Assembly (NCBI RefSeq): GCF_053078305.1
Contig: NZ_CP166879.1
Direction: 5' to 3' (one strand)
DNA length: 64,000 nt
A program made the position numbers and the translations under genes. Below are positions 26,278 through 48,447 of the stretch, piece by piece. The notes beneath the pieces were generated by a model. That model saw nothing but the letters and a program-made list of their open reading frames with translations. It was not told the DNA's origin and did no database searches. Position 1 is the first letter of the stretch. Each line of letters opens with the position of its first letter.

Positions 26278-26393
26278 TAATTGTCGCGAAACTGTCTGGA
26301 TTGTGAGCAAAGGCGCAGGAATTCAGACACTCTCACTTATCACTTCACGGAATGAGGGTTACCATACCCGGATTGCATTGACAGGAGATGTCC

Positions 26394-27437
26394 ATGAGCG
26401 AGAACTCGATTCGTTTGACCCAATACAGCCACGGAGCTGGTTGCGGCTGTAAAATTTCCCCAAAAGTGTTGGAAACCATCCTGCACAGTGAGCAGGCGAA
26501 GTTTGTTGATCCGAATTTGCTTGTGGGTAATGAAACCCGCGACGATGCGGCGGTGTACGATCTGGGCAATGGCACCAGCGTTATCAGTACCACCGACTTC
26601 TTTATGCCGATCGTTGATAATCCTTTCGATTTTGGCCGCATTGCGGCGACTAACGCCATCAGCGATATCTTCGCGATGGGGGGCAAACCGATTATGGCGA
26701 TTGCGATCCTCGGCTGGCCGATTAACAAACTTTCCCCAGAAATTGCCCGCGAAGTAACCGAAGGTGGACGCTATGCATGCCGTCAGGCGGGTATTGCGCT
26801 GGCTGGCGGTCACTCCATCGATGCGCCGGAGCCGATTTTTGGTCTGGCGGTAACGGGGATCGTACCGACCGAGCGGGTGAAGAAAAACAGTACCGCACAA
26901 GCCGGATGCAAACTGTTCCTGACGAAACCGCTGGGGATCGGCGTTCTTACCACGGCTGAGAAAAAATCACTGTTGAAACCAGAACATCAGGGACTGGCGA
27001 CGGAAGTGATGTGCCGGATGAACATCGCAGGTGCGTCCTTTGCCAACATCGAAGGCGTAAAAGCGATGACCGACGTTACTGGTTTTGGTCTGCTGGGCCA
27101 TTTGAGCGAAATGTGTCAGGGCGCAGGTGTGCAGGCGCGCGTTGACTATGACGCGATCCCGAAATTGCCGGGGGTTGAAGAGTACATTAAGTTGGGCGCA
27201 GTGCCTGGCGGCACCGAACGTAACTTTGCCAGCTACGGTCATCTGATGGGTGAAATGCCGCGTGAAGTGCGCGATTTGCTGTGCGATCCGCAAACTTCTG
27301 GCGGTTTGCTGCTGGCGGTCATGCCGGGAGCAGAAAATGAGGTTAAAACTACAGCCGCCGAGTTTGGCATTGAACTGACGGCGATTGGCGAACTGGTGCC
27401 AGCGCGCGGCGGTCGTGCCATGGTTGAGATCCGTTAA
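26394..27437 (+). CDS. selD: Selenide, water dikinase / selenophosphate synthetase (347 aa)
   Basis: [25 protein letters not shown]...; a Cys codon at the active-site position, with no in-frame TGA. Confidence 0.95.
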
Positions 27438-27441
27438 TTCA

Positions 27442-29403
27442 ATGCGGTTGTTTATTGCCGAAAAACCGAGTCTGGCGCGCGCCATTGCGGATGTCCTGCC
27501 CAAACCGCACCGTAAAGGCGATGGCTTTATCGAGTGCGGTAATGGTCAGGTGGTGACCTGGTGTATCGGTCACCTGCTTGAGCAGGCGCAGCCAGACGCC
27601 TACGACAGCCGCTATGCGCGCTGGAATCTTGCGGATTTGCCGATTGTCCCGGAAAAGTGGCAATTACAGCCCCGACCCTCCGTGACCAAACAACTTAACG
27701 TCATCAAACGGTACCTGCATGAAGCCAGCGAAATCGTTCACGCCGGGGACCCGGATCGCGAAGGGCAACTGCTGGTGGATGAAGTGCTGGACTATCTACA
27801 ACTGGCACCGGAAAAGCGCCAGCAGGTGCAGCGTTGCTTGATAAACGACCTGAACCCGCAGGCGGTTGAGCGGGCGATCGACCGTCTTCGTTCCAACAGT
27901 GAGTTTGTACCGCTGTGCGTTTCTGCGCTGGCGCGAGCGCGTGCCGACTGGCTATACGGCATCAACATGACCCGTGCGTATACCATTCTCGGTCGCAATG
28001 CCGGTTATCAGGGCGTACTTTCCGTGGGACGCGTGCAGACACCCGTGCTCGGGCTGGTGGTGCGCCGCGATGAAGAGATTGAAAACTTCGTGGCGAAAGA
28101 CTTCTTTGAAGTCAAAGCGCATATCGTGACACCTGCCGATGAGCGGTTTACCGCTATCTGGCAACCGAGCGAAGCGTGTGAACCGTACCAGGATGAAGAA
28201 GGGCGCTTGTTACATCGTCCACTGGCGGAGCATGTGGTTAACCGCATTAGTGGTCAACCGGCTATAGTCACTAGCTATAACGATAAACGGGAATCAGAAT
28301 CCGCGCCGCTGCCTTTTTCGCTTTCGGCGTTGCAGATTGAAGCGGCAAAACGTTTTGCTCTGAGTGCGCAGAACGTGCTTGATATCTGCCAGAAGCTGTA
28401 CGAAACACACAAGCTAATCACTTATCCGCGTTCCGATTGTCGCTATTTGCCAGAAGAACATTTTGCCGGACGCCACGCGGTGATGAATGCCATCAGCGTT
28501 CATGCACCAGATCTGTTGCCGCAGCCAGTGGTAGATCCAGATATACGCAACCGCTGTTGGGATGACAAAAAGGTCGATGCGCACCACGCCATCATCCCGA
28601 CCGCACGGAGTTCTGCGATCAACCTGACGGAGAACGAAGCGAAGGTCTATAACCTTATTGCCCGTCAGTACTTGATGCAGTTCTGCCCGGATGCGGTGTT
28701 CCGCAAGTGTGTTATCGAACTGGACATTGCCAAAGGCAAATTTGTCGCTAAAGCGCGTTTTCTTGCTGAAGCAGGTTGGCGCGCGCTGTTAGGCAGCAAA
28801 GAGCGCGATGAAGAAAACGACGGCACGCCACTGCCTGTGGTGGCGAAAGGCGATGAGTTGCTGTGTGAAAAAGGTGAAGTGGTAGAGCGGCAAACCCAGC
28901 CGCCTCGCCATTTTACCGATGCAACACTGCTTTCGGCGATGACCGGGATCGCGCGCTTTGTGCAGGACAAAGATCTGAAAAAGATCCTTCGTGCGACCGA
29001 TGGTCTGGGGACAGAAGCAACGCGTGCCGGGATTATTGAACTGTTGTTCAAGCGTGGTTTCCTCACCAAAAAAGGGCGCTATATCCACTCCACCGACGCC
29101 GGAAAAGCGTTATTCCATTCGCTGCCAGAAATGGCTACGCGACCGGACATGACCGCGCACTGGGAATCGGTGCTGACGCAAATCAGCGAAAAGCAGTGTC
29201 GCTATCAGGACTTTATGCAGCCGCTGGTGGGGACGCTATATCAGCTTATTGATCAAGCCAAACGTACTCCGGTGCGGCAGTTTCGCGGCATTGTGGCTCC
29301 GGGCAGTGGTGGCAGTGCTGATAAGAAAAAGGCTGCACCGCGTAAACGTAGTGCGAAAAAAAGTCCGCCAGCAGATGAAGCCGGAAGCGGGGCGATAGCG
29401 TAA
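27442..29403 (+). CDS. topB: DNA topoisomerase III (653 aa)
   Basis: Start at the ATG at 27442 ([19 protein letters not shown]...), 4 nt after the selD stop. Confidence 0.95.
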
Positions 29404-32998: not shown

Positions 32999-33619
32999 GT
33001 GCTAGACCGCCATCTTCATCCCCGGATTAAACCGTTGTTGCATCAGTGCGTGCGGGTTCTTGATAAACCGGGCATTACGCCAGATGGTTTAACATTAGTG
33101 GGATTTGCCATCGGCGTGCTGGCACTGCCGTTTCTGGCACTGGGCTGGTATCTGGCGGCGCTAATCGTCATTTTGTTGAACAGGCTGCTTGATGGTCTGG
33201 ATGGCGCACTGGCGCGGCGCAGAGGGCTTACCGACGCGGGCGGCTTTCTCGATATTTCTCTCGATTTTCTCTTTTACGCGCTGGTGCCGTTTGGTTTTAT
33301 TCTTGCTGCACCGGAGCAAAATGCGCTGGCAGGCGGCTGGCTGCTGTTTGCGTTTATCGGCACGGGTAGCAGTTTTCTAGCTTTTGCTGCGCTGGCGGCG
33401 AAACATCAGATTGATAATCCCGGTTATGCGCATAAATCGTTTTATTATCTGGGGGGATTAACCGAAGGCACAGAAACGATCTTACTGTTTGTGCTGGGAT
33501 GTTTATTCCCTGCATGGTTTGCGTGGTTTGCGTGGATCTTCGGTGCGTTGTGCTGGATGACGACCTTTACGCGGGTGTGGAGTGGGTATCTGACGCTGAA
33601 GTCGCTCCAGCGTCAGTAA
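32999..33619 (+). CDS. ynjF: CDP-alcohol phosphatidyltransferase family membrane protein YnjF (about 206 aa)
   Basis: GTG starts at 32993 and 32999 are both possible; contains DGLDGALAR, the CDP-alcohol transferase signature. Confidence 0.8.
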   Translation: MLDRHLHPRIKPLLHQCVRVLDKPGITPDGLTLVGFAIGVLALPFLALGWYLAALIVILLNRLLDGLDGALARRRGLTDAGGFLDISLDFLFYALVPFGFILAAPEQNALAGGWLLFAFIGTGSSFLAFAALAAKHQIDNPGYAHKSFYYLGGLTEGTETILLFVLGCLFPAWFAWFAWIFGALCWMTTFTRVWSGYLTLKSLQRQ

Positions 33620-33627
33620 TTGCAATG

Positions 33628-34935
33628 TTATTTGCTGCTGTCCGGGCCGCGTTCACCGGTTGCTACCGGATTTTTTGGATCGCTGCTCCATTCGTACCAG
33701 CCGCCGTCGTAAACGGAGACGTTATTCCAGCCCATTGCTCGTGCGTACATAAAGGTTTCGGACGCGCGCCAGCCGGTGCCGCAGTAGAATGAAACTTGCT
33801 GATCTGGTTTGATATTCCATGCTTTCCACATAGCGGTAATATCATCGGCGCTACGCATGGTGCCATCCGGATTATGGAAATCTTCCATATGCGTCGAGTC
33901 GCTACCAGCGTGTCCCCAACGTGCTCCGGCTATTTCACCTTTTGGTTTAATATAGCTGTAACCGCTGGTCGTACCGATAAATTCTGGCCACGAACGAATG
34001 CTCACCAGCGATGCATCCTGGCGATGCAGCAGTCCACGGGCCTGTTCCATATCGAGCATCAGTTGCGGTTGTGCCGGGATCTTCACGCCGAAATCCGGTT
34101 CCGCTTTCACTTTCGGTGGCGTTCCTCGCTCAACAGGCAGTCCCGCGTCGGACCAGGTTTGCCAGCCGCCATCCAGCAGGCGCACATCTTTCACGCCTGC
34201 ATACAGCATAATCTGCGCCACACGCGCTGCAGCGTATACGTCACGCCCGTACAGAATGACCGTGGTGTCATGGCGAATGCCGTGTTTTGCCAGCATCGCT
34301 TTTAGTTGTTCATCAGAAACTTTGTTCCACAGCGGTTCGCTTTCCACTTCGTTGGTATCGATGTAGTCAGCACCGGGAATATGGCTGATAAGGTAAAGCT
34401 TAGGAGCGCCCCAGGCCGCTTCAATGACTTTCCAGTCACCGGCAGGTTTCGCCGTAACCTCTTTACCTTGTTGCAGGTCATGCAGCCATTGCGGATAAAC
34501 CAGCTGCTCAAAATGCGGCAGTTTTTGCAGACGGGAAGGTTCGCTTAGCGCGTCACTCAGAATGGAGATATGCGTAAAACCTGCTTTTTGCAGTCGCGTT
34601 TTGACGGCGTCGACATCTTTGTCATTACCGTACAGCGCCACCGGGGCATCGGCTTTCAGGTTATGTTGCTTGATCCACTCGTTGAGCTGTTCGGTGCTCA
34701 TTTTGTCGAGCCAGTTAGCAGAGAGGTTTAAGGCGGCAGGTTCATGACCAGAAGGGCCATTTAAGGTTTGTGGCCAGCCGTTATAAAACGCGCTGGGGCG
34801 AGTATCTAGCGCTTTGCCATTTTGTTGTTGAAGCTGGTCAAGTGTAAGAGGCTTCGCCAGTTCAGCGGCCCACGAAGAAGCGCAAGCCAGCCCTAAAGCC
34901 ATTGCCAGCGCGGTCATTTGAGAAACACGTTTCAT
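33628..34935 (-). CDS. ynjE: Periplasmic three-domain rhodanese, thiosulfate sulfurtransferase YnjE (435 aa)
   Basis: Start at the ATG at 34935 (MKRVSQMTALAMALGLACASSWA signal peptide); CGTGWR rhodanese active-site motif. Confidence 0.9.
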   Translation of the reverse strand: MKRVSQMTALAMALGLACASSWAAELAKPLTLDQLQQQNGKALDTRPSAFYNGWPQTLNGPSGHEPAALNLSANWLDKMSTEQLNEWIKQHNLKADAPVALYGNDKDVDAVKTRLQKAGFTHISILSDALSEPSRLQKLPHFEQLVYPQWLHDLQQGKEVTAKPAGDWKVIEAAWGAPKLYLISHIPGADYIDTNEVESEPLWNKVSDEQLKAMLAKHGIRHDTTVILYGRDVYAAARVAQIMLYAGVKDVRLLDGGWQTWSDAGLPVERGTPPKVKAEPDFGVKIPAQPQLMLDMEQARGLLHRQDASLVSIRSWPEFIGTTSGYSYIKPKGEIAGARWGHAGSDSTHMEDFHNPDGTMRSADDITAMWKAWNIKPDQQVSFYCGTGWRASETFMYARAMGWNNVSVYDGGWYEWSSDPKNPVATGERGPDSSK

Positions 34936-35001
34936 CGAAAATCCCGACATTGTAGTTTTGAGTGCGCCATTCTGAACTGACGCATTGGGAAAAACTTTGC
35001 G

Positions 35002-35655
35002 TTATCGCAGTTTGTTGTAATTTTCTGACCACTGAGCCATATCCAGAACAGAGCTATCAGCAGGAACATCCTGGAGATCGTGCGTTACCTGAACGACGGG
35101 GATCGCCAGTTCGCGAACTTCGCTGAACACCCACTGGCGAAAATTATCGCGCAGAGCCACATCAAGACGGCTGAATGGCTCATCCAGTAGCAACGCTTTT
35201 GGCTGAGCGAGAAGGGCGCGAAGCAGAGCAACGCGCGCTCGCTGACCGCCAGACAAAGTGGCAGGATCCTGATGGAAAGCTCCGTCGAGGCCTGAACGCT
35301 CAAGTGCATCATTCACGGCATTACGTCGGGCATTCCCTTTAAGTGTCGCCGGTAGCGCCAGCAGTAAATTTTGCCCGACGCTGAACTGGTCAAATAACAG
35401 TGCATCCTGGAAAAGAATGCCAATCTGACGTTGTGCGGTGGATAGCATGTCAATCCGTTGCTCATTGAGCCATAGCTCACCTGTACAAGAAAACTGTCCA
35501 GCCAGTGCACCAATCATCCATGAAAACAGAGTGGATTTTCCACAGCCAGACGGCCCCATTAACGTGACAATGTCACCTTTATCCACCGTAAAGTTAACGT
35601 TTGTCAGCAAGCAACTTTCTGGTAAACGTAGCGAAACATTTTTCACGCAGAGCAT
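35002..35655 (-). CDS. ynjD: ABC transporter ATP-binding protein YnjD (217 aa)
   Basis: Walker A GPSGCGKST and signature LSGGQRARV; start at the ATG at 35655, overlapping the ynjC stop by 1 nt. Confidence 0.85.
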   Translation of the reverse strand: MLCVKNVSLRLPESCLLTNVNFTVDKGDIVTLMGPSGCGKSTLFSWMIGALAGQFSCTGELWLNEQRIDMLSTAQRQIGILFQDALLFDQFSVGQNLLLALPATLKGNARRNAVNDALERSGLDGAFHQDPATLSGGQRARVALLRALLAQPKALLLDEPFSRLDVALRDNFRQWVFSEVRELAIPVVQVTHDLQDVPADSSVLDMAQWSENYNKLR

Positions 35656-37190
35656 TAGCGGAGTCCTTGTCTGACATAACCTACCCATTTTGCGACTAAC
35701 GCGGTCAGGGCAAAAATAATAAGCGGTAATAGCAGTTGCCATAAAGCCTGGGCGGCGAGAATACCGTTGCTGCCGCCGCTGCTTAATGCCACCGCCTCAG
35801 TGGTGAGCGTCGGAAAACGCCCCGCGCCCAGCCACAGCGTCGGCATATACTGCGCAATACTGACTGAAAATCCCACTGCGAAGGCAATCAGCGTAGGGCG
35901 TAGCATAAGCGGACATTTCACGTAAAAGAAGATTTTGACACGCGACCAGCCCAGCGTTTGCGCAATCAAAATTAACCGTGAATCAATGCGCTGCCAGGCG
36001 GGTTGCAGGATAAACAGCATCCACGGTATTACCCACAGCAGATGCCCCCAGACCACCGCCGTCCAGCTCCCATCCAGGTTCAGCCAGAGCGCCAGCGTGT
36101 ACTGGCCCGCCACCAGCGGCAGTGCCGGTAATAAAATGGGCAACCATAACCACAACTGGCGACGCTGTGGCCCCCATTCCAGCCACAGCAGTAACAGGAG
36201 CAAAGCGATGAATGTCGCCACCAGCCCCATTGTCAGGCTGTTGAGCAGCGCCTCGTGATTGATCGTTGATTGATCCGCGAGGATCGCCAGCAGAACCACA
36301 CACAGCACACCGGTCAAGGGTAAAAAACTCGCCAGCGTAATGCCTGGCAATAAAGGCGTGGCAAGCTTGCGAACGCCATCTACGCGGGGAATAGTACGCC
36401 GCCAGCTACGCCATAGCAGATAGCCCAGCAAAACGTAGGCGGCGAGTAACAGCATCAGCAGCAGGCTGGCGAGTGCGCCTTTAATCTGTTGATCGGTATC
36501 GCCCTGGGTTAACCACTGCCAGCTAATTACCGCAAGCGTCGGTGGATTACCTGGCCCAAGAATAATCGCCACATCCACGACCGACAGCGACCAGGCAACA
36601 ATCGCCAGCATCGCCATTGCAAGTGCAGGAGCAACGGAGGGCAACAGCAGCCAGTTCAAACATTGCCAACGGCTGTAACCCAGCGAATCCAACACGATGA
36701 CCTGTTGCAAAAGCCGTTTTTCACTCAGTACCGCCGCTAAGATCCACAGCAGAAATGCGCTTTCTTTTACCGCCAGGGTGAAACCCAGACCGATGCCAAA
36801 TCGGTCCATCGGTGGGGTGAGAAAAGGAAAACAGTCATACAGCAACCCTCCGTCAGCAAAGAGCAGAAGGGTGCTGGTGGCAAAAGCCACATGGGGAATG
36901 GCGAGCAGCCACGGCAGACGGGCGCACATACGCTGCCATTTCGGCCCAGGCCACAGCGCCACAATCACCAGCAGGGCAATCAACAACGCCCCGACCGCCG
37001 CGATGGTTGTCGACACCAGCGTTGCCAGTAATGCCTGCGGTAACTGTGGATCGGCAAATAACGCCTGCCAGTGTGTCAACGACAAAGCAGGCGATATCAG
37101 CGTGAGAGCTGCCGGGATCAGCGGTGCATAAATCACCGCCACCATCGCCCACAGCAAAAAGATTAATGCGTACCGTAACGGTGTAGCCAT
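35655..37190 (-). CDS. ynjC: ABC transporter permease YnjC (511 aa, duplicated permease fold)
   Basis: Start at the ATG at 37190 (MATPLRYALIF...); polytopic membrane protein. Confidence 0.85.
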   Translation of the reverse strand: MATPLRYALIFLLWAMVAVIYAPLIPAALTLISPALSLTHWQALFADPQLPQALLATLVSTTIAAVGALLIALLVIVALWPGPKWQRMCARLPWLLAIPHVAFATSTLLLFADGGLLYDCFPFLTPPMDRFGIGLGFTLAVKESAFLLWILAAVLSEKRLLQQVIVLDSLGYSRWQCLNWLLLPSVAPALAMAMLAIVAWSLSVVDVAIILGPGNPPTLAVISWQWLTQGDTDQQIKGALASLLLMLLLAAYVLLGYLLWRSWRRTIPRVDGVRKLATPLLPGITLASFLPLTGVLCVVLLAILADQSTINHEALLNSLTMGLVATFIALLLLLLWLEWGPQRRQLWLWLPILLPALPLVAGQYTLALWLNLDGSWTAVVWGHLLWVIPWMLFILQPAWQRIDSRLILIAQTLGWSRVKIFFYVKCPLMLRPTLIAFAVGFSVSIAQYMPTLWLGAGRFPTLTTEAVALSSGGSNGILAAQALWQLLLPLIIFALTALVAKWVGYVRQGLR

Positions 37191-38329
37191 TCTTGTTCCA
37201 GCGCATTTACCCATCCTGCGTGCGGTTCAGCCAGTACCGGCGGCAGATCTTGCGGCATTCTTGATTGCAATGTTTCGCGCTGCCCATCAGGCAGTTTTTG
37301 CGGATCGAGAACAGAAGGATCGCCCCAGACAGCGGGATCTGCTTTACGCAATTGCGCATCGGGTGAGAGCAAGAAATTGGCAACTACCTTCGCCGCAGCA
37401 CTGGCATTCGCGTTGGCAGGAATGGTGACGAAATGCACGTTGCCAATCATCCCCTCGCGAAAGCCAAAACTGTAACTGCTTGCAGGCAAATCGCCGCTAG
37501 CGATTTTTTGCTGCGCATGCGCGGGGTTAAAGGTCAGCGACAGGCGCAATGTGCCGGATTTCAGCAGAGCATCCATCCGCGCGGGCGAAGGCGGGAAATC
37601 CTTTCCTTCGCGCCACAAATACGGATGCAGCGCATCAAGATATTGCCACAAGGGAGCAGTGACACGGGCGAAAGTCGCATCGTCCGGCGCTTCTTTTAAT
37701 GCGGCGGGATCGGGCGTCAGCATAATCAGCAACTGTTCAAGAAACGCCGTGCCGGTAAAGTCCGGTGGGCGCGGATAGGTAACCGTGCCGGGATTGGCTT
37801 TAGCAAACTCCAGTAAGGCTTGCGGCGTTTGTGGTGGCTGTGGCGTAACATCGCGGCGGGCGATAAATGTCAGTTGTGCGCCCCCCCAGGGCGATTCAGC
37901 CCCTTCTGTAGGCACTGAAAAATCTTCCCGCACCGGCAGCTGTGTGTCGACATAGCGCCAGTTGGGCAGAGTCTCTGCCCAGTCGGTTTGCAGTAAATTG
38001 GCCTCTTTTAAGGTGCGGAAGTTTTCGCCGTTCACCCAGAGCAGATCCACCGAGCCGCCCGTTTTACGTCCGGCTGCGGCTTCGGTCTGAATGCGCTTCA
38101 CCGCGTCTGCGGCATCCGCCAGACGGACAATCTTCAGGTTTATAGCGTAATGGGTTTTCATCTCGCCGCTCACCCAGTCGAGATAGCGGTTAATTGCGGT
38201 ATCGCCGCCCCAGGCGTTAAACCAGACAGTTTGCCCTTTGGCCTCATTTTTAATTTCTTGCCAGTCACTGGCATGTGTTGCCAGAGAAAACAGCGATAAC
38301 AATCCCAGCAACCACCCACAATGGCGCAT
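37163..38329 (-). CDS. ynjB: ABC transporter periplasmic substrate-binding protein YnjB (388 aa)
   Basis: Start at the ATG at 38329, with an AAGGAG Shine-Dalgarno 5 nt upstream; signal peptide MRHCGWLLGLLSLFSLATHA. Confidence 0.85.
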   Translation of the reverse strand: MRHCGWLLGLLSLFSLATHASDWQEIKNEAKGQTVWFNAWGGDTAINRYLDWVSGEMKTHYAINLKIVRLADAADAVKRIQTEAAAGRKTGGSVDLLWVNGENFRTLKEANLLQTDWAETLPNWRYVDTQLPVREDFSVPTEGAESPWGGAQLTFIARRDVTPQPPQTPQALLEFAKANPGTVTYPRPPDFTGTAFLEQLLIMLTPDPAALKEAPDDATFARVTAPLWQYLDALHPYLWREGKDFPPSPARMDALLKSGTLRLSLTFNPAHAQQKIASGDLPASSYSFGFREGMIGNVHFVTIPANANASAAAKVVANFLLSPDAQLRKADPAVWGDPSVLDPQKLPDGQRETLQSRMPQDLPPVLAEPHAGWVNALEQEWLHRYGTH

Positions 38330-38338
38330 CATCTCTCC

Positions 38339-38887
38339 TTAAGAACGTTTTTCCGGAATACGGCACAGCCCCTGAGCGGGAATGTCCATGGCAGAATTAA
38401 AACGGGCTGACAGATTTTGCAAGCCGATCAATGCCGTCAGTTCGGTGAGCGCCTGAGCGTCAAAATGCGTAGCCAGTCGGGTGCGCAGGGCATCATCGAC
38501 CGTAGGCGGTGTGACGCTTGCGGCTTCGGCGTACTCCAGCGCCAGCCGTTCTTCATCGCTGAAGAGCGGGCTTTGCCGCCAGTCAGCCACTGCCAGCAGT
38601 TTATCGCTGCTGCCGGTGCGCTCGGCGACTTTCATACTGGTGATATCCACGCAAAACTCACACAGGCACATTTGCGCAATGCGCGCGCTGACAAGCGATC
38701 GTACTACCGGATCGAGCGGTGAGCGTTTGCGCTCCAGCCAGCCAACAAACATCGACACCAGATAAAAGATAAACGGGATCCGCCCCCACCAGCGAATGGG
38801 GCTTAGCACCTCGCCGTAATGGCGACGATGCAGCCACGCCTGCGGACGTAAAATGAAAGGAATTTTGCTAAGCGGCGGTAAACCCAT
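38339..38887 (-). CDS. ynjA: Carboxymuconolactone decarboxylase / AhpD-like family protein YnjA (182 aa)
   Basis: 182-aa ORF, recognised as YnjA. Confidence 0.85.
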   Translation of the reverse strand: MGLPPLSKIPFILRPQAWLHRRHYGEVLSPIRWWGRIPFIFYLVSMFVGWLERKRSPLDPVVRSLVSARIAQMCLCEFCVDITSMKVAERTGSSDKLLAVADWRQSPLFSDEERLALEYAEAASVTPPTVDDALRTRLATHFDAQALTELTALIGLQNLSARFNSAMDIPAQGLCRIPEKRS

Positions 38888-39594
38888 CAGGCATTCCTCT
38901 TCTGGCGCTCAAGCCATATTTTCTTCGCCATAAAAATCACCACGGTCAGGGCAAACAGAATAAACAGTCCGGTGACAAACCAGAAGGTACCGCCTGTTAA
39001 CATGCTGCCCGCCCAGGAATAAACAATAGTCGCCGGTAACTGACCAAGCCCGGTGGCGATAAAAAACGAGCGAAAACGGATTGAAGTCAAACCGGCAGCA
39101 TAGCTGATTGGATCGAAAGGGACAAAAGGCAATAACCGACAGACCAGGATAGTGTGATTGCCGTAGCGAGTGAAAAAGCCGTCCATACTGTCAAGTACGG
39201 TTTTGCCGGTTAATTTTTCCACCACTTCGCGGCCCATCACTCTGGCGATAAAAAAGCACAGCGCCGCGCCGGCCATCGAACTGGTCCACGACAGCAAGCC
39301 GCCCCAGAACGCGCCAAACAGCGACGCATTGGCAAAGGTGATCAAAAACGCAGGTAGCGGTGCAGCAATGGCCTGTAAAATCATCAACAAGAACGAGACA
39401 ACTGCCGCCAGTGCGCCGTAAGACTGAATAAAGCGTTCTATACCCTGTTGGTCCACGGCGGCAAACGCCGCAACGCTGCGATTGATAAACTCATGGACGC
39501 CGGGAAGCAGCGCCCATGCCAGCAGCATAGCGAACAACAGGATGATGAGGGTTATACGGTAGTACCAGATTTTACGCGATTGCATCTTCATCAT
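38887..39594 (-). CDS. ydjZ: DedA/TVP38-family inner-membrane protein YdjZ (235 aa)
   Basis: 235-aa polytopic membrane ORF, recognised as YdjZ. Confidence 0.85.
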   Translation of the reverse strand: MMKMQSRKIWYYRITLIILLFAMLLAWALLPGVHEFINRSVAAFAAVDQQGIERFIQSYGALAAVVSFLLMILQAIAAPLPAFLITFANASLFGAFWGGLLSWTSSMAGAALCFFIARVMGREVVEKLTGKTVLDSMDGFFTRYGNHTILVCRLLPFVPFDPISYAAGLTSIRFRSFFIATGLGQLPATIVYSWAGSMLTGGTFWFVTGLFILFALTVVIFMAKKIWLERQKRNA

Positions 39595-39608
39595 CCTTTA
39601 TCCTGGCT

Positions 39609-40286
39609 TTATTCGGTGATTTTAAAGGTAACCGTTGCCAGCGTGTTATCCGCCGGGAGAACCGAGGCATTGCCTTTGAATTTAACTTCACCTCGTTTTT
39701 CAACCGCACCATAAGTGTATGTTGCATTGCTGACGATGCCGACCGGGCAGCTATCCAGACACACCAGGCAACCCGTTTTCTTCTCTTCTGCTGCCGTTAA
39801 ATTACCGCCAAAGCGCATGTCCAGTTTCTTGCCATTACTGTCAACAATCACTTCATCGAAGGAATACGTTTTTGCCGCCCCTTGCCAGTTGACCGAAATA
39901 TCCAGTTTGCTGCCCGTGACATGAGTCGTTTCTTTATTATCCATCGTCATGTTTTCGCCCGGCGTACCACCTGCCTCTTTCAGGGCTTCATAAAATGCTT
40001 TCGGGGTCGCATAACCCATAAACAGCGATTTATGTCCGTTGGAGCCATCTTTAAACACAATACCGTGACGAGTGTCGTCGGTGAGGAAACGACCATTAAT
40101 TTGCACCAGCATGGTTACCGTATGGTTATTGGCATCGACGCGCAGCGGTTGGCTGTTCGAAAGTCCGTCGTATTCCACTTTTGCCGCCGCATTCTCTTTT
40201 TGATCACAGCCGCTAAGCCCAGCAACAGCCAGTAAGCAGAGTGCAGTCAGTCCTTTTTTCCATGACACTGAATAATGTTGCAACAT
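39609..40286 (-). CDS. ydjY: Lipoprotein-like Cys-rich protein YdjY (225 aa)
   Basis: Start at the ATG at 40286 (MLQHYSVSWKKGLTALCLLAVAGLSGC, lipobox-like); CLVCLDSCPVG Cys cluster. Confidence 0.8.
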   Translation of the reverse strand: MLQHYSVSWKKGLTALCLLAVAGLSGCDQKENAAAKVEYDGLSNSQPLRVDANNHTVTMLVQINGRFLTDDTRHGIVFKDGSNGHKSLFMGYATPKAFYEALKEAGGTPGENMTMDNKETTHVTGSKLDISVNWQGAAKTYSFDEVIVDSNGKKLDMRFGGNLTAAEEKKTGCLVCLDSCPVGIVSNATYTYGAVEKRGEVKFKGNASVLPADNTLATVTFKITE

Positions 40287-40290
40287 CGTT

Positions 40291-41001
40291 CTATCCTTCA
40301 TTTTTTGGGTGAGTAAGTGGGTTGCGGCGCGAAGCAGACAGATCCACATGTTTGTGTCGGGCGTAGAGTTTGGCGAGCTGGACGAGAATAAACAGCGCCA
40401 GGCCCGCCAGACAGAGTTGTAAAATAAAGCGCAGCGTAATGCCTTCATTGGCGAGATCGCTCGCCATCACGGTATAAATAACAATACCGGGCAGGGTCGT
40501 GAGTGCCGAAATAAGGGTATAAGGCCAGAAGGCGATTGTGGTTAATCCGTAAGCGTAATTTTGAATATTGTAAGGAAACAACGGGATTAAGCGGGTCAGA
40601 ATAAGAAAATCAATACCGTTACGCGCAATGCCTTTTTCAATGGCCTGGAAGGTATGGCTATGGCCAACGTATTTCAGCAGTAAATCACGTCCCAGCCAGC
40701 GCGCCAGCAGGAATGAGCACGAGGAGGCCAGCGTGGCGGCAATTAATGAGAGTAGTGTCCCTAAGAGCGGGCCAAAAACTATTCCTCCCGCGATCACCAG
40801 TATGCTTCCTGGTAACAGAAAGAGGGTGGCAATGATGAATAACAGAATATAGAGGCTATAACCGAACAATCCGCTCTGGCGGATGAGTGTCTGTAAGTGG
40901 GATAAATCGGTGAGCAGATCGAATAAACCGAAAGCGTGGATAGCGTAAATGGCCAGCGCAAAAATAAGACAGGCAAAAAGAAATTTACGCTCAGCGTTCA
41001 T
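40291..41001 (-). CDS. ydjX: TVP38/TMEM64 (DedA-related) inner-membrane protein YdjX (236 aa)
   Basis: Start at the ATG at 41001 (MNAERKFLFACLIFALAIYA...). Confidence 0.85.
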   Translation of the reverse strand: MNAERKFLFACLIFALAIYAIHAFGLFDLLTDLSHLQTLIRQSGLFGYSLYILLFIIATLFLLPGSILVIAGGIVFGPLLGTLLSLIAATLASSCSFLLARWLGRDLLLKYVGHSHTFQAIEKGIARNGIDFLILTRLIPLFPYNIQNYAYGLTTIAFWPYTLISALTTLPGIVIYTVMASDLANEGITLRFILQLCLAGLALFILVQLAKLYARHKHVDLSASRRNPLTHPKNEG

Positions 41002-41167
41002 CGTGGAGTTTCCTATATCAAACTTGATAATAGAGAAGTGGTCAGACAACTAAAAACGCAGTGACGGTATAACAAAGGACGGCAGGCAACAAATCATTAC
41101 TGACAGTTTGTTGATTTTTCTCAAGGTTAATTCTCCTGACCCAGTTTGAGCCAGGAGAGCTGCTAAA

Positions 41168-41974
41168 TTAGCGGCGGAAGGTCGCCCAGACGGGGGCGTG
41201 ATCGGACGGTTTTTCCATGCTGCGGATTTCATAGTCGATGCCGGTTTCTACGCAACATTCTGCCAGCGGTTGGCTGGCGAGCAGCAGGTCGATGCGCAGA
41301 CCACGGTTATCGTCAAAACCTTTTGAGCGGTAATCAAACCATGAGAAACGATCTGCTGTTTGCGGATTCGCATGGCGGAAGGTATCAACCAATCCCCAGC
41401 TCATCAGTCTCTCCATCCATTCGCGTTCCTCCGGAAGGAAAGAACATTTTCCGGTACGCAGCCAGCGCTTACGGTTCTCTTCGCCAATGCCAATATCCAG
41501 GTCGCCAGGACTGATATTCATATCGCCCATAATCAGCACCGGATTTTCACGCTTGAGTTCGGTTTCCAGGTAGTTTTGCAGGTTCTGATAAAACTGCGCT
41601 TTTGCCGGGAATTTTATCGGATGGTCGCGGCTTTCACCCTGCGGGAAGTAACCGTTGATCACGGTGACATTACCCAGCGGTGAGGGGATTTCCGCCATAA
41701 TAATCCGCCGCTGCGCCTCTTCGTCGTCACCGGGAAAGCCGCGACGCACGGCAATCGGCGTCTCTTTGGTCAGCAGCGCCACGCCATAATGGCCTTTCTG
41801 CCCGTGATAAAACACGTTGTAGCCGAGCTTCGCCACCTCTTCGAGCGGAAACATATCGTCATGAACTTTTGTCTCCTGCAGGCCAATCACATCCGGTTGG
41901 TGCTTTTCGACGATGGCTTCAAGCTGGTGAGGTCTGGCGCGCAGGCCGTTGATATTAAAAGAGACAAATTTCAT
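41168..41974 (-). CDS. xthA: Exodeoxyribonuclease III (268 aa)
   Basis: Start at the ATG at 41974 ([21 protein letters not shown]...). Confidence 0.95.
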
Positions 41975-42214
41975 AGTCGCTGCCATTTATTCAGATAAAG
42001 AGTGCGTGGATGGTAGCAGAATTTCGCTTTGCTTACCGCCTGTTGTTAAGTGATTTGATCGATGGTTGTTAATGATGTCAACGATGGAGCAAAAAATGCC
42101 CGCTGTTGGTGCGCGCTGCGTCAGAATGGCGCAGTAATTTCCAGTAAATTTCGTCAATGATCACAATTCCAGAATTATATTTTACTTCTGCATAACATTG
42201 CGTTTTTTATTCTT

Positions 42215-42290
42215 TTTATTCACCCACATCGCAAACGTATTCACTTAATATGCACTTTAAATGCATATGGTTTGGTTATAACTCCTTGAT
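42215..42290 (+). promoter_or_regulatory. AT-rich upstream activator region of astC with ARG-box-like and NtrC-like palindromic motifs
   Basis: Motifs cgtATTCActtaatATGCActttaaaTGCATat lie upstream of the sigma-54 promoter. Assignment rests on established ast-operon regulation; exact site boundaries are not resolved. Confidence 0.35.
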
Positions 42291-42331
42291 TTCCAATTAG
42301 CCTCCGCCGTTTATGCACTTTTATCACTGGC

Positions 42332-42347
42332 TGGCACGAACCCTGCA
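42332..42347 (+). promoter_or_regulatory. Sigma-54 (-24/-12) promoter of the ast operon
   Basis: TGGCAC-N5-CTGCA at 42332..42347, about 73 nt upstream of the astC ATG; matches the GG-N10-GC spacing of the sigma-54 consensus. Confidence 0.6.
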
Positions 42348-42383
42348 ATCTACATTTACAGCGAAAACATTACTTATTATTAA

Positions 42384-48447
<6,064 letters not shown>

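Follow-up and report, generated by a model that had tools for sequence, protein, structure and literature searches.

The Escherichia coli genes ydjXYZ, ynjABCD, ynjE, and ynjF form one module around a YdjY-VTT pair, possibly a chalcogen relay at the inner membrane

The YeeE/YeeD (TsuA/TsuB) pair, like YedE/YedF, is a chalcogen uptake pair, and the TIGR03527 family of YedF has been tied to SelD by phylogenetic profiling. Mercury uptake and reduction follow the MerP-MerT-MerA logic. UptA, TMEM41B, and VMP1 move lipids or lipid-linked substrates across membranes. Here we compare with these systems a long-known, unexplained set of nine genes in E. coli, turned on when oxygen is absent, that judging by its relatives in other bacteria resembles machinery passing selenium or sulfur across the membrane; if this is true, the old question of by what route bacterial selenoenzymes receive their selenium becomes testable.

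The window analyzed is a stretch of 64,000 nucleotides from contig NZ_CP166879.1 (RefSeq assembly GCF_053078305.1). All eight genes named in a sequence-only reading were found intact on the minus strand (33628-41001), and the families assigned to them there were borne out by domain and model matches (Table 1). RefSeq annotates the block as ydjX-ydjY-ydjZ-ynjA-ynjB-ynjC-ynjD, ynjE, and all but two of 5,426 complete E. coli genomes (5,424) carry it; the arrangement is no product of chance. While ydjXYZ-ynjABCD is already known as an annotated, FNR-activated operon, it is new that ynjE and the opposite-strand ynjF belong to the same conserved module, so that ydjX, ydjY, ydjZ, and ynjA to ynjF would be one unit induced without oxygen. 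The sequence-only reading, which had the eight genes right, missed ynjF, though comparative data put it in the module; its interpretation as a periplasmic sulfur, thiosulfate, or chalcogen handling and import system is partly supported, but it overlooked the YdjY-VTT core, the likeness of YnjE to EanB, and the placement of some relatives in ArsS-type radical-SAM clusters.

Table 1. Features of the block and its surroundings in the window
Feature	Position	Strand	Description
ydjX	40291-41001	-	VTT/DedA inner-membrane protein, COG0398 type, 236 aa; PF09335, E 9.6e-27
ydjY	39609-40286	-	lipoprotein, NF040466
ydjZ	38887-39594	-	VTT/DedA protein, 235 aa; PF09335; conserved partner of YdjY
ynjA	38339-38887	-	AhpD/CMD-fold protein, PF02627
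ynjB	37163-38329	-	periplasmic substrate-binding protein (SBP_bac_8), PRK11622 subfamily
ynjC	35655-37190	-	fused double permease of ABC importer, 511 aa; PF00528 on C-terminal half
ynjD	35002-35655	-	ABC ATPase, 217 aa; PF00005, E 1.9e-29
ynjE	33628-34935	-	exported triple-domain rhodanese, catalytic Cys385, EanB-like
ynjF	32999-33619	+	CDP-alcohol phosphatidyltransferase, PF01066; converges on ynjE
selD (selenide, water dikinase)	26388-27437	+	NF002098, 615 bits; context, outside operon
FNR-like site TTGAGAAAAATCAA	41111-41124	-	1 mismatch vs TTGAT-N4-ATCAA

The module is centered on YdjY and its VTT partner: across several phyla, 76 of 79 loci have a VTT gene next to that of the rare three-cysteine lipoprotein YdjY. 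YdjY scores 146 bits against NF040466 (cut-off 50), has Asp28 directly after the lipobox LSGC27, and is predicted from Cys27 and Asp28 to be retained at the inner membrane. No solved structure is related to its fold, and the three cysteines of its motif C173-x2-C176-x3-C180 are invariant. YdjX and YdjZ both match VTT_dom (PF09335), and YdjZ orthologs stand beside YdjY across phyla (E 1e-59 to 1e-83); among 52 YdjZ sequences, conservation reaches 90% or more at about 85 positions, all 52 have C113, and 46 have C152. An assignment of either protein as an UptA equivalog was rejected (27-37 bits against a cut-off of 250, YdjX scoring 27). Desulfobacterota have VTT domains joined to HdrD-like CCG domains, and in one protein a fatty-acid hydroxylase domain is fused to YdjY. 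Rhodanese and YdjY domains are joined in four divergent lipoproteins of three different architectures, all of which retain both the rhodanese catalytic cysteine and the YdjY triad, and these proteins couple rhodanese to YdjY. The YdjY triad, C113 of YdjZ, the CxxC of YnjA, and the CCG-VTT fusions point to thiol chemistry.

Orthologs of YnjB, YnjC, YnjD, YnjF, and YnjE recur in YdjY clusters of Clostridia, Bacillus benzoevorans, Catonella, Campylobacter, and Peptostreptococcaceae, and one metagenome-assembled genome (L172) holds the entire E. coli gene set together with YedF (TIGR03527) and DUF3343. The block is syntenic in Enterobacteriaceae, but ynjA is relocated and coupled to ynjF, translationally in Salmonella/Citrobacter, Kluyvera, and Buttiauxella; ydjY is absent in related genera. 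The selenoprotein formate dehydrogenases of E. coli are made under anaerobiosis, and this timing, with the activation of both transcription units by FNR, fits a selenium function. FNR directly activates ydjXYZ-ynjABCD from a site at -60.5, and K-12 ynjE has its own FNR-dependent promoter, also directly activated (Myers et al., 2013; PMC3688515); the FNR-like site of the window lies 110-123 bp 5' of the ydjX start codon. A functional link of ynjE with the operon, as proposed in the sequence-only reading, is supported by co-localization across phyla, the YdjY-rhodanese fusions, and the FNR activation of both units (PMC3688515).

YnjE, which has a signal peptide, three rhodanese stretches, and the active site FYC385GTGWR, is identical to PDB 3ipo/2wlr. 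The next-best structure matches are the sulfurtransferases 6kvw/6ktv/6h98 (E 1e-86 to 1e-88), and we take the 6h98 and 6ktv series to be EanB, the anaerobic ergothioneine synthase. EanB is the nearest solved relative of YnjE (~300 bits over residues 33-427), with an identical CGTGWR loop and the equivalents of Tyr353 and Tyr411 kept, but YnjE is exported and has Thr348 where EanB has Tyr375. YnjE has indeed been listed among the EanB-like enzymes, and the sulfur donor of EanB is polysulfide (PMC9516567). Thiosulfate, once suggested from the sequence as a substrate, is not supported: the activity of YnjE on it is poor or absent; activity with 3-mercaptopyruvate is little (PMC10215317).

YnjA, presumed cytoplasmic because it lacks a signal peptide, bears the motif C74-L-C76-E-F-C79 (C74-x-C76-x2-C79), of which the CxxC aligns with those of PDB 2ijc and 7xw1; its best NCBIfam match, under the cut-off, is "YciW-related (seleno)protein" (E 5e-29). 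YnjB scores 563 bits against PRK11622 (NF008633), a model that its orthologs in YdjY clusters of Firmicutes and the metagenome genome also pass (381-509 bits). Its AlphaFold2 model (pLDDT 86.5) is closest in fold to PhnS, PotD, FbpA, and TbpA (TM-score 0.55-0.65, 12-17% identity). A sulfate/thiosulfate-type binder was rejected, as YnjB groups with the PotD/TbpA/PhnS/FbpA structural cluster instead. YnjC, the counterpart of two separate genes in Firmicutes, has weak matches only, to PhnU2, ModB, and CysT models, and YnjD best matches PhnT2, sulfate, and ThiQ models. The importer falls well short of the cut-off of every model with a named substrate, and with the grouping of YnjB this tells against the earlier view that it imports a chalcogen.

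Selenium markers accompany the module in other genomes. YedF-long (TIGR03527) scores 185-218 bits (cut-off 110) in loci L172, L051, L074, L075, L076, and L079, and DUF3343 is found in L172, L051, L075, and L079; selD (TIGR00476; 325-369 bits, cut-off 125) directly adjoins YdjY in L076 and L024 and is ~2 kb off in L075 and L079, against a chance expectation of roughly 0.5% per locus. In Desulfobacterota, selD and yedF lie within or beside YdjY-VTT clusters. It counts against a selenium role that the markers were seen in Desulfobacterota loci and L172 only, and that the majority of Firmicutes YdjY loci (Gemella, Finegoldia, Peptostreptococcus) have none within 10 kb. In the window selD lies 5.5 kb from ynjF, and in Enterobacteriaceae, Klebsiella and Buttiauxella among them, 2.6-7 kb from the block; this proximity could be ordinary synteny. 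YedF-long, DUF3343, and selD in YdjY loci link the module to selenium and sulfur trafficking, and, with the TusA/DsrE domains of related clusters, favor the chalcogen part of the sequence-only reading.

From gene content, conservation, fusions, and the regulation described in the literature, we tentatively infer a thiol-based chalcogen relay at the inner membrane, together with its element (selenium somewhat favored over sulfane sulfur), its direction, and every transfer step. The exported YnjE would take zero-valent Se or S onto Cys385 and hand it to C173/C176/C180 of YdjY; the YdjZ/YdjX pair, with the invariant membrane Cys113 of YdjZ, would move the chalcogen into or across the membrane; and the CxxC of YnjA would free it reductively for enzymes such as SelD, a position that HdrD-like CCG proteins, YedF, and DUF3343 would fill in other phyla. 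YnjBCD and YnjF clearly travel with the YdjY-VTT core; at a guess, and as the simplest one, they might provide or recover the head group for a special phospholipid flipped by the VTT proteins, so that a lipid-linked carrier may take part. The relay is weakened because an importer of the polyamine/thiamine/phosphonate/iron class and a phospholipid synthase, both conserved partners, are not accounted for. Against it also count the other candidate routes of selenium entry in E. coli, CysPUWA and YedE. COG0398 DedA proteins are otherwise considered lipid scramblases (Todor et al.), a further point against the relay, and in an aerobic transposon screen selA, selB, and selD mattered while ydjX and ydjZ had no effect (PMC8803141), which speaks against selenium.

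The same machinery might serve sulfur only, capturing polysulfide or sulfane sulfur from the periplasm when oxygen is absent, to assimilate it, detoxify it, or attach it to an organic acceptor; in the fashion of EanB, YnjE would sulfurize a molecule that YnjBCD would afterwards import. We regard this as possible but rather unlikely. Rhodanese, TusA/DsrE, and DUF3343 primarily carry sulfur, and none of them is specific to selenium (PMC5322559), which also counts against the selenium relay; the hosts include the sulfur/polysulfide respirers Sulfurospirillum, Campylobacter, and Desulfobacterota. EanB-like enzymes have been suggested to sulfurize heterocycles with polysulfide (PMC9516567), YnjE retains the 6kvw-type active loop with both tyrosine equivalents, and YnjB, with invariant residues that are aromatic and acidic, could well accommodate a cationic heterocycle or amine. 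However, selD and TIGR03527 YedF point specifically to selenium, and the replacement of the EanB tyrosine by Thr348, the little activity with thiosulfate or 3-mercaptopyruvate, and the lack of an EanA/EgtD-type methyltransferase near YnjE-like genes all argue against a sulfur-only role.

It is unlikely that the block is a membrane-lipid pathway, in which YnjBCD would import a polar head-group alcohol, YnjF join it to CDP-diacylglycerol, and YdjX/YdjZ scramble or flip the phospholipid, with YdjY, YnjE, and YnjA as accessories. The CDP-alcohol phosphatidyltransferase motif of YnjF, D-G-x2-A-R-x7-G-x3-D-x3-D, reads intact in its sequence, and YnjB-type genes directly adjoin YnjF-type genes in seven loci (L026, L035, L042, L052, L058, L066, and L172). 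Related clusters contain MprF-like flippase domains (PF03706), choline-kinase-like kinases, CofC-like nucleotidyltransferases (TIGR04282), and GT2 glycosyltransferases (TIGR04283), a set resembling Kennedy-type head-group activation; the resemblance of COG0398 DedA proteins to the eukaryotic scramblases TMEM41B and VMP1 and the hydroxylase-YdjY fusion fit as well. A lipid pathway nevertheless leaves unexplained the rhodanese-YdjY and CCG/HdrD-VTT fusions, the invariant cysteines, and the selD, YedF, and DUF3343 neighbors, and the literature searched held no report of an unusual E. coli phospholipid attributable to YnjF.

Quite improbable is the handling of arsenic, either as trivalent arsenicals or as arsenosugar-type compounds from other microbes, with the YdjY triad as the As(III) site. 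Three-cysteine sites are typical As(III) ligands, and some "arsenosugar" clusters include relatives of ydjX, ydjY, and ydjZ: ArsS (TIGR04167; 450 bits, cut-off 300), TIGR04282, and TIGR04283 lie inside YdjY-VTT clusters of Campylobacter, Parvimonas, Thermincola, and Syntrophus, and 16 of the 80 metagenomic ArsS loci sampled have a YdjX-type VTT gene no more than 5 kb from ArsS. Some relatives sitting with these genes, annotated as arsenosugar biosynthesis, count against a chalcogen relay. The E. coli block, however, lacks all three signature enzymes; YdjY, YnjB, and YnjE occur in none of the 80 ArsS loci and YnjF in one; and regulation is by FNR, no ArsR link having been found. ArsS adjoins YedF and DUF3343 in L051 and L074, so that the radical-SAM clusters may concern selenium, not arsenic. 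Least credible is a set of unrelated neighbors (a DedA pair, an orphan ABC importer, a rhodanese of molybdenum-cofactor sulfuration, and a phospholipid enzyme) held together by enterobacterial synteny only: ynjE has its own promoter, ynjF is on the opposite strand, ydjY is lost and ynjA relocated in related genera, and YnjE is reported, in work cited in PMC3831636, to assist MoaD sulfuration, but the same families co-localize in different gene orders in Firmicutes, Campylobacterota, and an unrelated metagenome-assembled genome, YdjY-rhodanese fusions exist, YnjE is exported while MoaD and IscS are cytoplasmic, and deletion of ynjE left molybdenum-cofactor phenotypes normal (PMC3831636).

With UptA, TMEM41B, and VMP1, YdjX and YdjZ share PF09335 with its re-entrant loops, but YdjZ differs in its invariant cysteine and in having a lipoprotein as dedicated partner, and COG0398 proteins such as these lack the residues linked to undecaprenyl-phosphate flipping in UptA (Todor et al.). 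COG0398 proteins fused to pyridine-nucleotide disulfide oxidoreductases have been described (Todor et al.), and CCG-VTT fusions were seen here. The proposed chalcogen relay recalls, by analogy only and with sequence or fold kinship absent, the MerP-MerT-MerA order of a periplasmic cysteine protein, a membrane protein with cysteines, and a cytoplasmic disulfide-type reductase. YedE/YedF and YeeE/YeeD likewise combine a membrane protein with small thiol-active carriers (TusA-like, DsrE-like, DUF3343) near selD (PMC5322559). Here, in contrast, the membrane part is VTT/DedA, an extracytoplasmic three-cysteine lipoprotein and an exported rhodanese are added, and the E. coli block has an AhpD-like protein in place of its own YedF/DUF3343; in L172 and Desulfobacterota, YedF-long and DUF3343 adjoin YdjY-VTT, which stands in the usual position of YedE.

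The block that runs from ydjX to the convergent ynjF is real and already annotated; the gene coordinates in the table were obtained by mapping the RefSeq annotation of the best genome match onto the ORFs of the window. The window is chromosomal DNA of Escherichia: of 5,426 complete E. coli genomes, 5,424 matched the region 33000-43000, the closest of them at 98.8% identity, a value that points to a somewhat divergent Escherichia lineage. Base composition gave no sign of foreign origin, the G+C content of ydjX and ydjY being 48% against a window mean of 49.5%. The intergenic gaps from ydjX to ynjE are 4, 14, -1, 9, -28, -1, and 66 nt, and thus genes do overlap as the sequence-only reading had stated, but by 1 nt at two junctions only rather than at several. 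The families it had named (two VTT/DedA proteins, YdjY, a CMD/AhpD protein, an ABC importer, and a triple rhodanese) were upheld by Pfam and NCBIfam, while its gene set was incomplete because ynjF had been overlooked. Two apparent fusions, P0362 (VTT-YdjY) and P0122 (CMD-SBP, with SBP for substrate-binding protein), were rejected as read-through artefacts of public E. coli gene calls.

Features of the ydjX-ynjF block and its surroundings in the window
Feature	Coordinates	Strand	Description
selD	26388-27437	+	615 bits (NF002098); followed by a topB-like ORF (both within 26388-29403)
ynjF	32999-33619	+	CDP-alcohol phosphatidyltransferase; convergent with ynjE
ynjE	33628-34935	-	triple rhodanese
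promoter match	34949-34976	-	sigma-70-like, TTCAGA-16-TACAAT
ynjD	35002-35655	-	ABC ATPase
ynjC	35655-37190	-	ABC permease
ynjB	37163-38329	-	ABC importer SBP
ynjA	38339-38887	-	CMD/AhpD
ydjZ	38887-39594	-	VTT/DedA
ydjY	39609-40286	-	YdjY-domain lipoprotein
ydjX	40291-41001	-	VTT/DedA
FNR box	41111-41124		one mismatch, 5' of ydjX

Direct activation by FNR was reported for ydjXYZ-ynjABCD (site at -60.5) and, separately, for ynjE (site at -41.5), on the evidence of ChIP and RNA-seq in K-12 (Myers et al., 2013; PMC3688515). With the box TTGAGAAAAATCAA upstream of ydjX in the window and FNR-dependent expression in K-12, the block belongs to the FNR regulon. A scan of the ynjD-ynjE intergenic region of the window gave no FNR box at up to two mismatches. 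The sigma-70-like promoter match just 5' of ynjE was the sole such match in the 8 kb region, and the annotated start is so near that a leader would be almost absent. Expression of ynjABCD is also mildly induced on BaeR overexpression.

YdjY scored 146.4 bits against its family model (NF040466/PF27149; cut-off 50) and carries the motif TGC-x2-C-LDSC-PVG, whose three cysteines (C173-x2-C176-x3-C180 in the window sequence) are invariant in 20 diverse members. Its lipobox, LSGC27, is followed by Asp28. Because Asp at position +2 leads to retention of lipoproteins in the inner membrane, YdjY is predicted to be an inner-membrane lipoprotein. Some sources name it a 4Fe-4S ferredoxin, which is unlikely because it has three Cys only and gave no ferredoxin fold match; its signal, of the Sec lipoprotein type without a twin-arginine motif, was also counted against that name. 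The family is small and rare (393 representatives in 1.84 billion clustered proteins; about 120 of roughly 100,000 species genomes). The enterobacterial members found are from Escherichia, one Citrobacter, and [Enterobacter] lignolyticus, and the hosts outside this family are anaerobes and microaerophiles (Finegoldia, Peptostreptococcus, Gemella, Catonella, Clostridium, Sulfurospirillum, Campylobacter concisus, Syntrophus and other Desulfobacterota, and one spirochaete).

When the proteins of the window were searched against six-frame ORFs of YdjY loci from other genomes and metagenomes (L numbers), a VTT gene adjoined YdjY in 76 of the 79 loci, mostly as a YdjZ orthologue (E 1e-59 to 1e-83), and the core of the module is YdjY with a VTT protein. 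YdjZ is unusually constrained: about 85 of its 235 positions are at least 90% identical among orthologues, and of 52 sequences all have the invariant Cys113 and 46 have Cys152. In Desulfobacterota, an HdrD-like Fe-S/CCG domain and the VTT domain are joined in one protein. Many loci have a small four-helix membrane protein between YdjY and YdjZ that is absent from E. coli, and in Finegoldia, Gemella, and Peptostreptococcus it forms the N-terminal part of a fusion with YdjZ. This protein of ~125-150 aa with a W-L-E/D-M-R motif accompanies YdjY in L024, L026, L052, L058, L061, L172, and other loci, and no family model matched it.

Four divergent lipoproteins among the family representatives have YdjY fused to one rhodanese domain, as rhodanese-YdjY (P0392 and P0397), YdjY-rhodanese (P0391), or YdjY-rhodanese-YdjY (P0467), and all four retain the catalytic rhodanese Cys and the YdjY Cys triad. 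Quite apart from gene order, these fusions support the earlier proposal that ynjE and the operon work together. In two further representatives the partner of the YdjY domain is a membrane fatty-acid hydroxylase domain (P0484) or DUF5719 with a cytochrome-c-like region (P0405).

The other genes of the block recur around YdjY as well. YnjB orthologues, which scored 381-509 bits with the PRK11622 model (cut-off 203), are accompanied by an ATPase and split YnjC permeases in the YdjY clusters of Clostridium sp. CX1, C. punense, Bacillus benzoevorans, Catonella, and several Bacillota metagenome-assembled genomes; YnjF-type genes directly adjoin YnjB-type importer genes in six loci (L026, L035, L042, L052, L058, and L066); and YnjE-type triple rhodaneses (E 1e-57 to 1e-78) are found in the clusters of Catonella, Campylobacter, and one Peptostreptococcaceae genome. 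No other locus makes the case as strongly as L172 of a metagenome-assembled genome, in which one strand encodes a YdjZ-type VTT protein, a rhodanese-YdjY fusion, the small membrane protein, a YdjX-type VTT protein, YedF, and DUF3343, and the other a CCG protein, a YnjF-type transferase, YnjB (430 bits), two permeases, and an ATPase. Synteny in Enterobacteriaceae follows the order xthA-VTT-VTT-(CMD)-SBP-permease-ATPase-rhodanese/ynjF. The blocks of Salmonella/Citrobacter, Kluyvera, Klebsiella, and Buttiauxella (L087, L088, L169, and L170) are without ydjY, and in three of the four the ynjA-like CMD gene stands upstream of ynjF in translational coupling with it, the alternative place being ahead of ynjB; the Buttiauxella block has one VTT gene only. 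In Campylobacter (L061, 11460-13300), the YnjE-like gene is followed by genes for a C_GCAxxG_C_C redox protein and a sodium:solute symporter-family transporter, which occupy the position of the ABC importer in E. coli. These data support the view that the nine genes are one cross-phylum module around the YdjY-VTT pair, with rhodanese and thiol-redox partners.

Selenium markers accompany several of these clusters. The TusA/DsrE fusion of L172, which is followed by DUF3343, scored 189 bits with TIGR03527 (cut-off 110) and so has full membership of this family, the "sulfurtransferase-like selenium metabolism protein YedF"; five more YdjY loci carry YedF homologues, at 185-218 bits. SelD (TIGR00476) was matched with 325-369 bits (cut-off 125) in four YdjY loci: SelD, YedF, and YdjY are contiguous in L076, as are CCG-VTT, YdjY, the small membrane protein, and SelD in L024, while YedF, DUF3343, and SelD lie ~2 kb from CCG-VTT and YdjY in L075 and ~2 kb from YdjY in L079. 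The order in L051 is CCG-VTT, YdjY, YdjY, small membrane protein, ArsS, YedF, and DUF3343. Within 10 kb of YdjY, selD was found in 4 and YedF in 6 of 73 loci, where chance would give ~0.5% per locus for a single-copy gene; the loci concerned, being all from Desulfobacterota, lack phylogenetic independence. Neither DedA, VTT, nor YdjY is mentioned in PMC5322559, and we believe that the link of YdjY/VTT to selenium is unreported within the literature searched.

Our preferred reading, which we hold tentatively, is that the block is an FNR-induced chalcogen relay with selenium favored over sulfur, and we infer each of its steps. YnjE, the exported rhodanese, would hand the chalcogen to YdjY, YdjZ/YdjX would then move it across the membrane, and YnjA would take it as the endpoint of the relay. 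YnjA has the AhpD/CMD fold (PF02627, 36.7 bits against a cut-off of 23) and carries C74-L-C76-E-F-C79, of which C76-x2-C79 falls, in sequence alignment, on the CxxC of the solved members 2ijc and 7xw1. A relay for sulfur only is a somewhat doubtful explanation. The E. coli block contains no YedF or DUF3343 and is separated from selD-topB by 5.5 kb (2.6 kb in Buttiauxella, L170, and 7 kb in Klebsiella, L169); related clusters carry the selenium markers above their cut-offs.

YnjE is a rhodanese sulfurtransferase with a signal peptide, three PF00581 stretches, and the six-residue loop C385-G-T-G-W-R in the active site FYC385GTGWR. Despite its RefSeq name, thiosulfate sulfurtransferase, it was reported to act on thiosulfate and 3-mercaptopyruvate poorly or not at all (PMC10215317), and molybdenum-cofactor phenotypes were normal in a ynjE deletion strain (PMC3831636). 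YnjBCD is a type I ABC importer, whose SBP (YnjB, SBP_bac_8/PRK11622), two permease domains (YnjC, 511 aa, BPD_transp_1), and ATPase (YnjD, an ABC_tran match) are encoded together. All models with a named substrate (ThiBPQ, 2-aminoethylphosphonate, CysPUWA, molybdate, polyamine, and ferric iron) scored far under their cut-offs. The KEGG-style assignment to thiamine, phosphonate, or polyamine was rejected because no equivalog was matched and the PotD ligand residues Trp255 and Asp257 are replaced by Asn297 and His299 in the alignment with YnjB. Because the CysP/CysT/CysA models fell short and YnjE is poorly active with thiosulfate, a thiosulfate importer was rejected too, so that of the sulfur, thiosulfate, or chalcogen system first proposed, the thiosulfate part falls and the chalcogen part is the one tentatively favored. 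A single-sequence search gave no relative of YnjB in the PDB, and a profile search matched 4edp and PotD weakly. The folds nearest to its AlphaFold2 model (pLDDT 86.5) were PhnS (4r6y), a Campylobacter binding protein, PotD, FbpA, and TbpA (TM-score 0.55-0.65, identity 12-17%). The invariant residues of YnjB are mostly aromatic and acidic and include no arginine, and an oxyanion ligand such as thiosulfate seems unlikely.

A lipid pathway without any chalcogen is improbable in our judgment. YnjF is a CDP-alcohol phosphatidyltransferase (PF01066, 43.4 bits against a cut-off of 22) whose motif DGALARRRGLTDAGGFLDISLD fits D-G-x2-A-R-x(7-8)-G-x3-D-x3-D; it scored 64 and 42 bits against its nearest equivalogs, archaetidylinositol-phosphate synthase and PIP synthase (cut-offs 180 and 170). 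Recurrent neighbors in YdjY loci include MprF-like flippase domains (PF03706), MacB/FtsX exporters, C_GCAxxG_C_C redox proteins, and HdrD-like CCG proteins (top match NF045663). The kinase, nucleotidyltransferase, and CDP-alcohol transferase of such loci resemble a Kennedy-type head-group pathway, and because of this set and the flippase-like partners a lipid-linked carrier was considered as a possible component of the preferred relay. YdjX and YdjZ belong to the VTT superfamily (PF09335, 94.3 and 87.8 bits against a cut-off of 33.9). They were compared with UptA by equivalog score and by the acidic and basic residues at the re-entrant loop tips (COG0586 type), and scored 27 and 37 bits against NF052604 (cut-off 250). 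YdjZ was assigned to the COG0398 subfamily, without UptA-type loop-tip residues; in this subfamily, which is sometimes fused to pyridine-nucleotide disulfide oxidoreductases, undecaprenyl phosphate flipping is unlikely and scramblase activity possible (Todor et al.). Their identification as undecaprenyl-phosphate flippases is unsupported by these scores and this placement.

An arsenic function, suggested by the arsenosugar-type ArsS clusters of some distant relatives, is very unlikely. In Campylobacter, Catonella, Parvimonas, Thermincola, and Syntrophus, ArsS (TIGR04167, 450 bits against a cut-off of 300) occurs with TIGR04283 and with TIGR04282, which in some cases forms a fusion with a choline-kinase-like kinase. 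The trio is restricted to some distant relatives of this kind; none of the three was found in the ynjF-ydjX scan of the window or in the enterobacterial loci. A VTT gene lies within 5 kb of ArsS in 16 of 80 sampled metagenomic loci (9 of 35 among loci of at least 10 kb); because YdjY, YnjB, and YnjE were found in none of the 80 (YnjF once), VTT is the common element and the ArsS link stops short of the E. coli-specific parts. YnjA as an ArsS-associated AhpD-like protein was rejected, since YnjA-like genes numbered none in non-enterobacterial YdjY loci and one in ArsS loci (L138). ArsS adjoins YedF (TIGR03527) and DUF3343 in two Desulfobacterota loci (L051, 11248-13479; L074, 10824-18940), and the arsenic-based name of the family may misdescribe its role in anaerobes. 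That the genes are unrelated neighbors is scarcely credible beside their recurrence in other phyla and the fusions of YdjY to rhodanese.

If the chalcogen reading is wrong, a nine-gene module conserved across phyla still stands. The block provides a specific candidate, amenable to genetics in E. coli K-12, both for selenium acquisition and handover to selenophosphate synthetase and for the question of which substrate is used by the second-largest DedA subfamily (COG0398, to which human TMEM41B and VMP1 are related). It gives context to four orphan proteins, YdjY, YnjA, YnjE, and YnjF, the last a phospholipid-type synthase without characterization in the best-studied bacterium; the literature searched held no function papers for ydjY, ynjA, ynjB, ynjC, ynjD, or ynjF, and incidental mentions only of phenotypes of the block genes. 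A bolder and rather unlikely version is that the block is the missing dedicated route by which E. coli and many anaerobes bring environmental selenium to SelD, through a mechanism unrecognized so far. The exported rhodanese and the novel-fold Cys3 lipoprotein would load chalcogen onto a carrier moved by the DedA/VTT pair; YnjF may synthesize this carrier as a special phospholipid, with YnjBCD recycling the head group. If true, this would define the first bacterial substrate for COG0398 DedA proteins and tie the "arsenosugar" ArsS clusters of anaerobes to selenium instead.

The sequence of YnjE is identical to the solved structures 3ipo and 2wlr, and beyond these the solved proteins nearest to it, at about 300 bits, are three sulfurtransferase entries (6kvw, 6ktv, and 6h98), which we take to be EanB, the anaerobic ergothioneine synthase. 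YnjE was listed among "EanB-like enzymes", which may attach sulfur to heterocycles via polysulfide (PMC9516567, Seebeck laboratory). No EanA-type methyltransferase was found near YnjE-like genes. YnjE keeps the Cys, the active loop, and the equivalents of Tyr353 (Y326) and Tyr411 (Y384), but has T348 in place of Tyr375, the three tyrosines presumably being functional residues of EanB.
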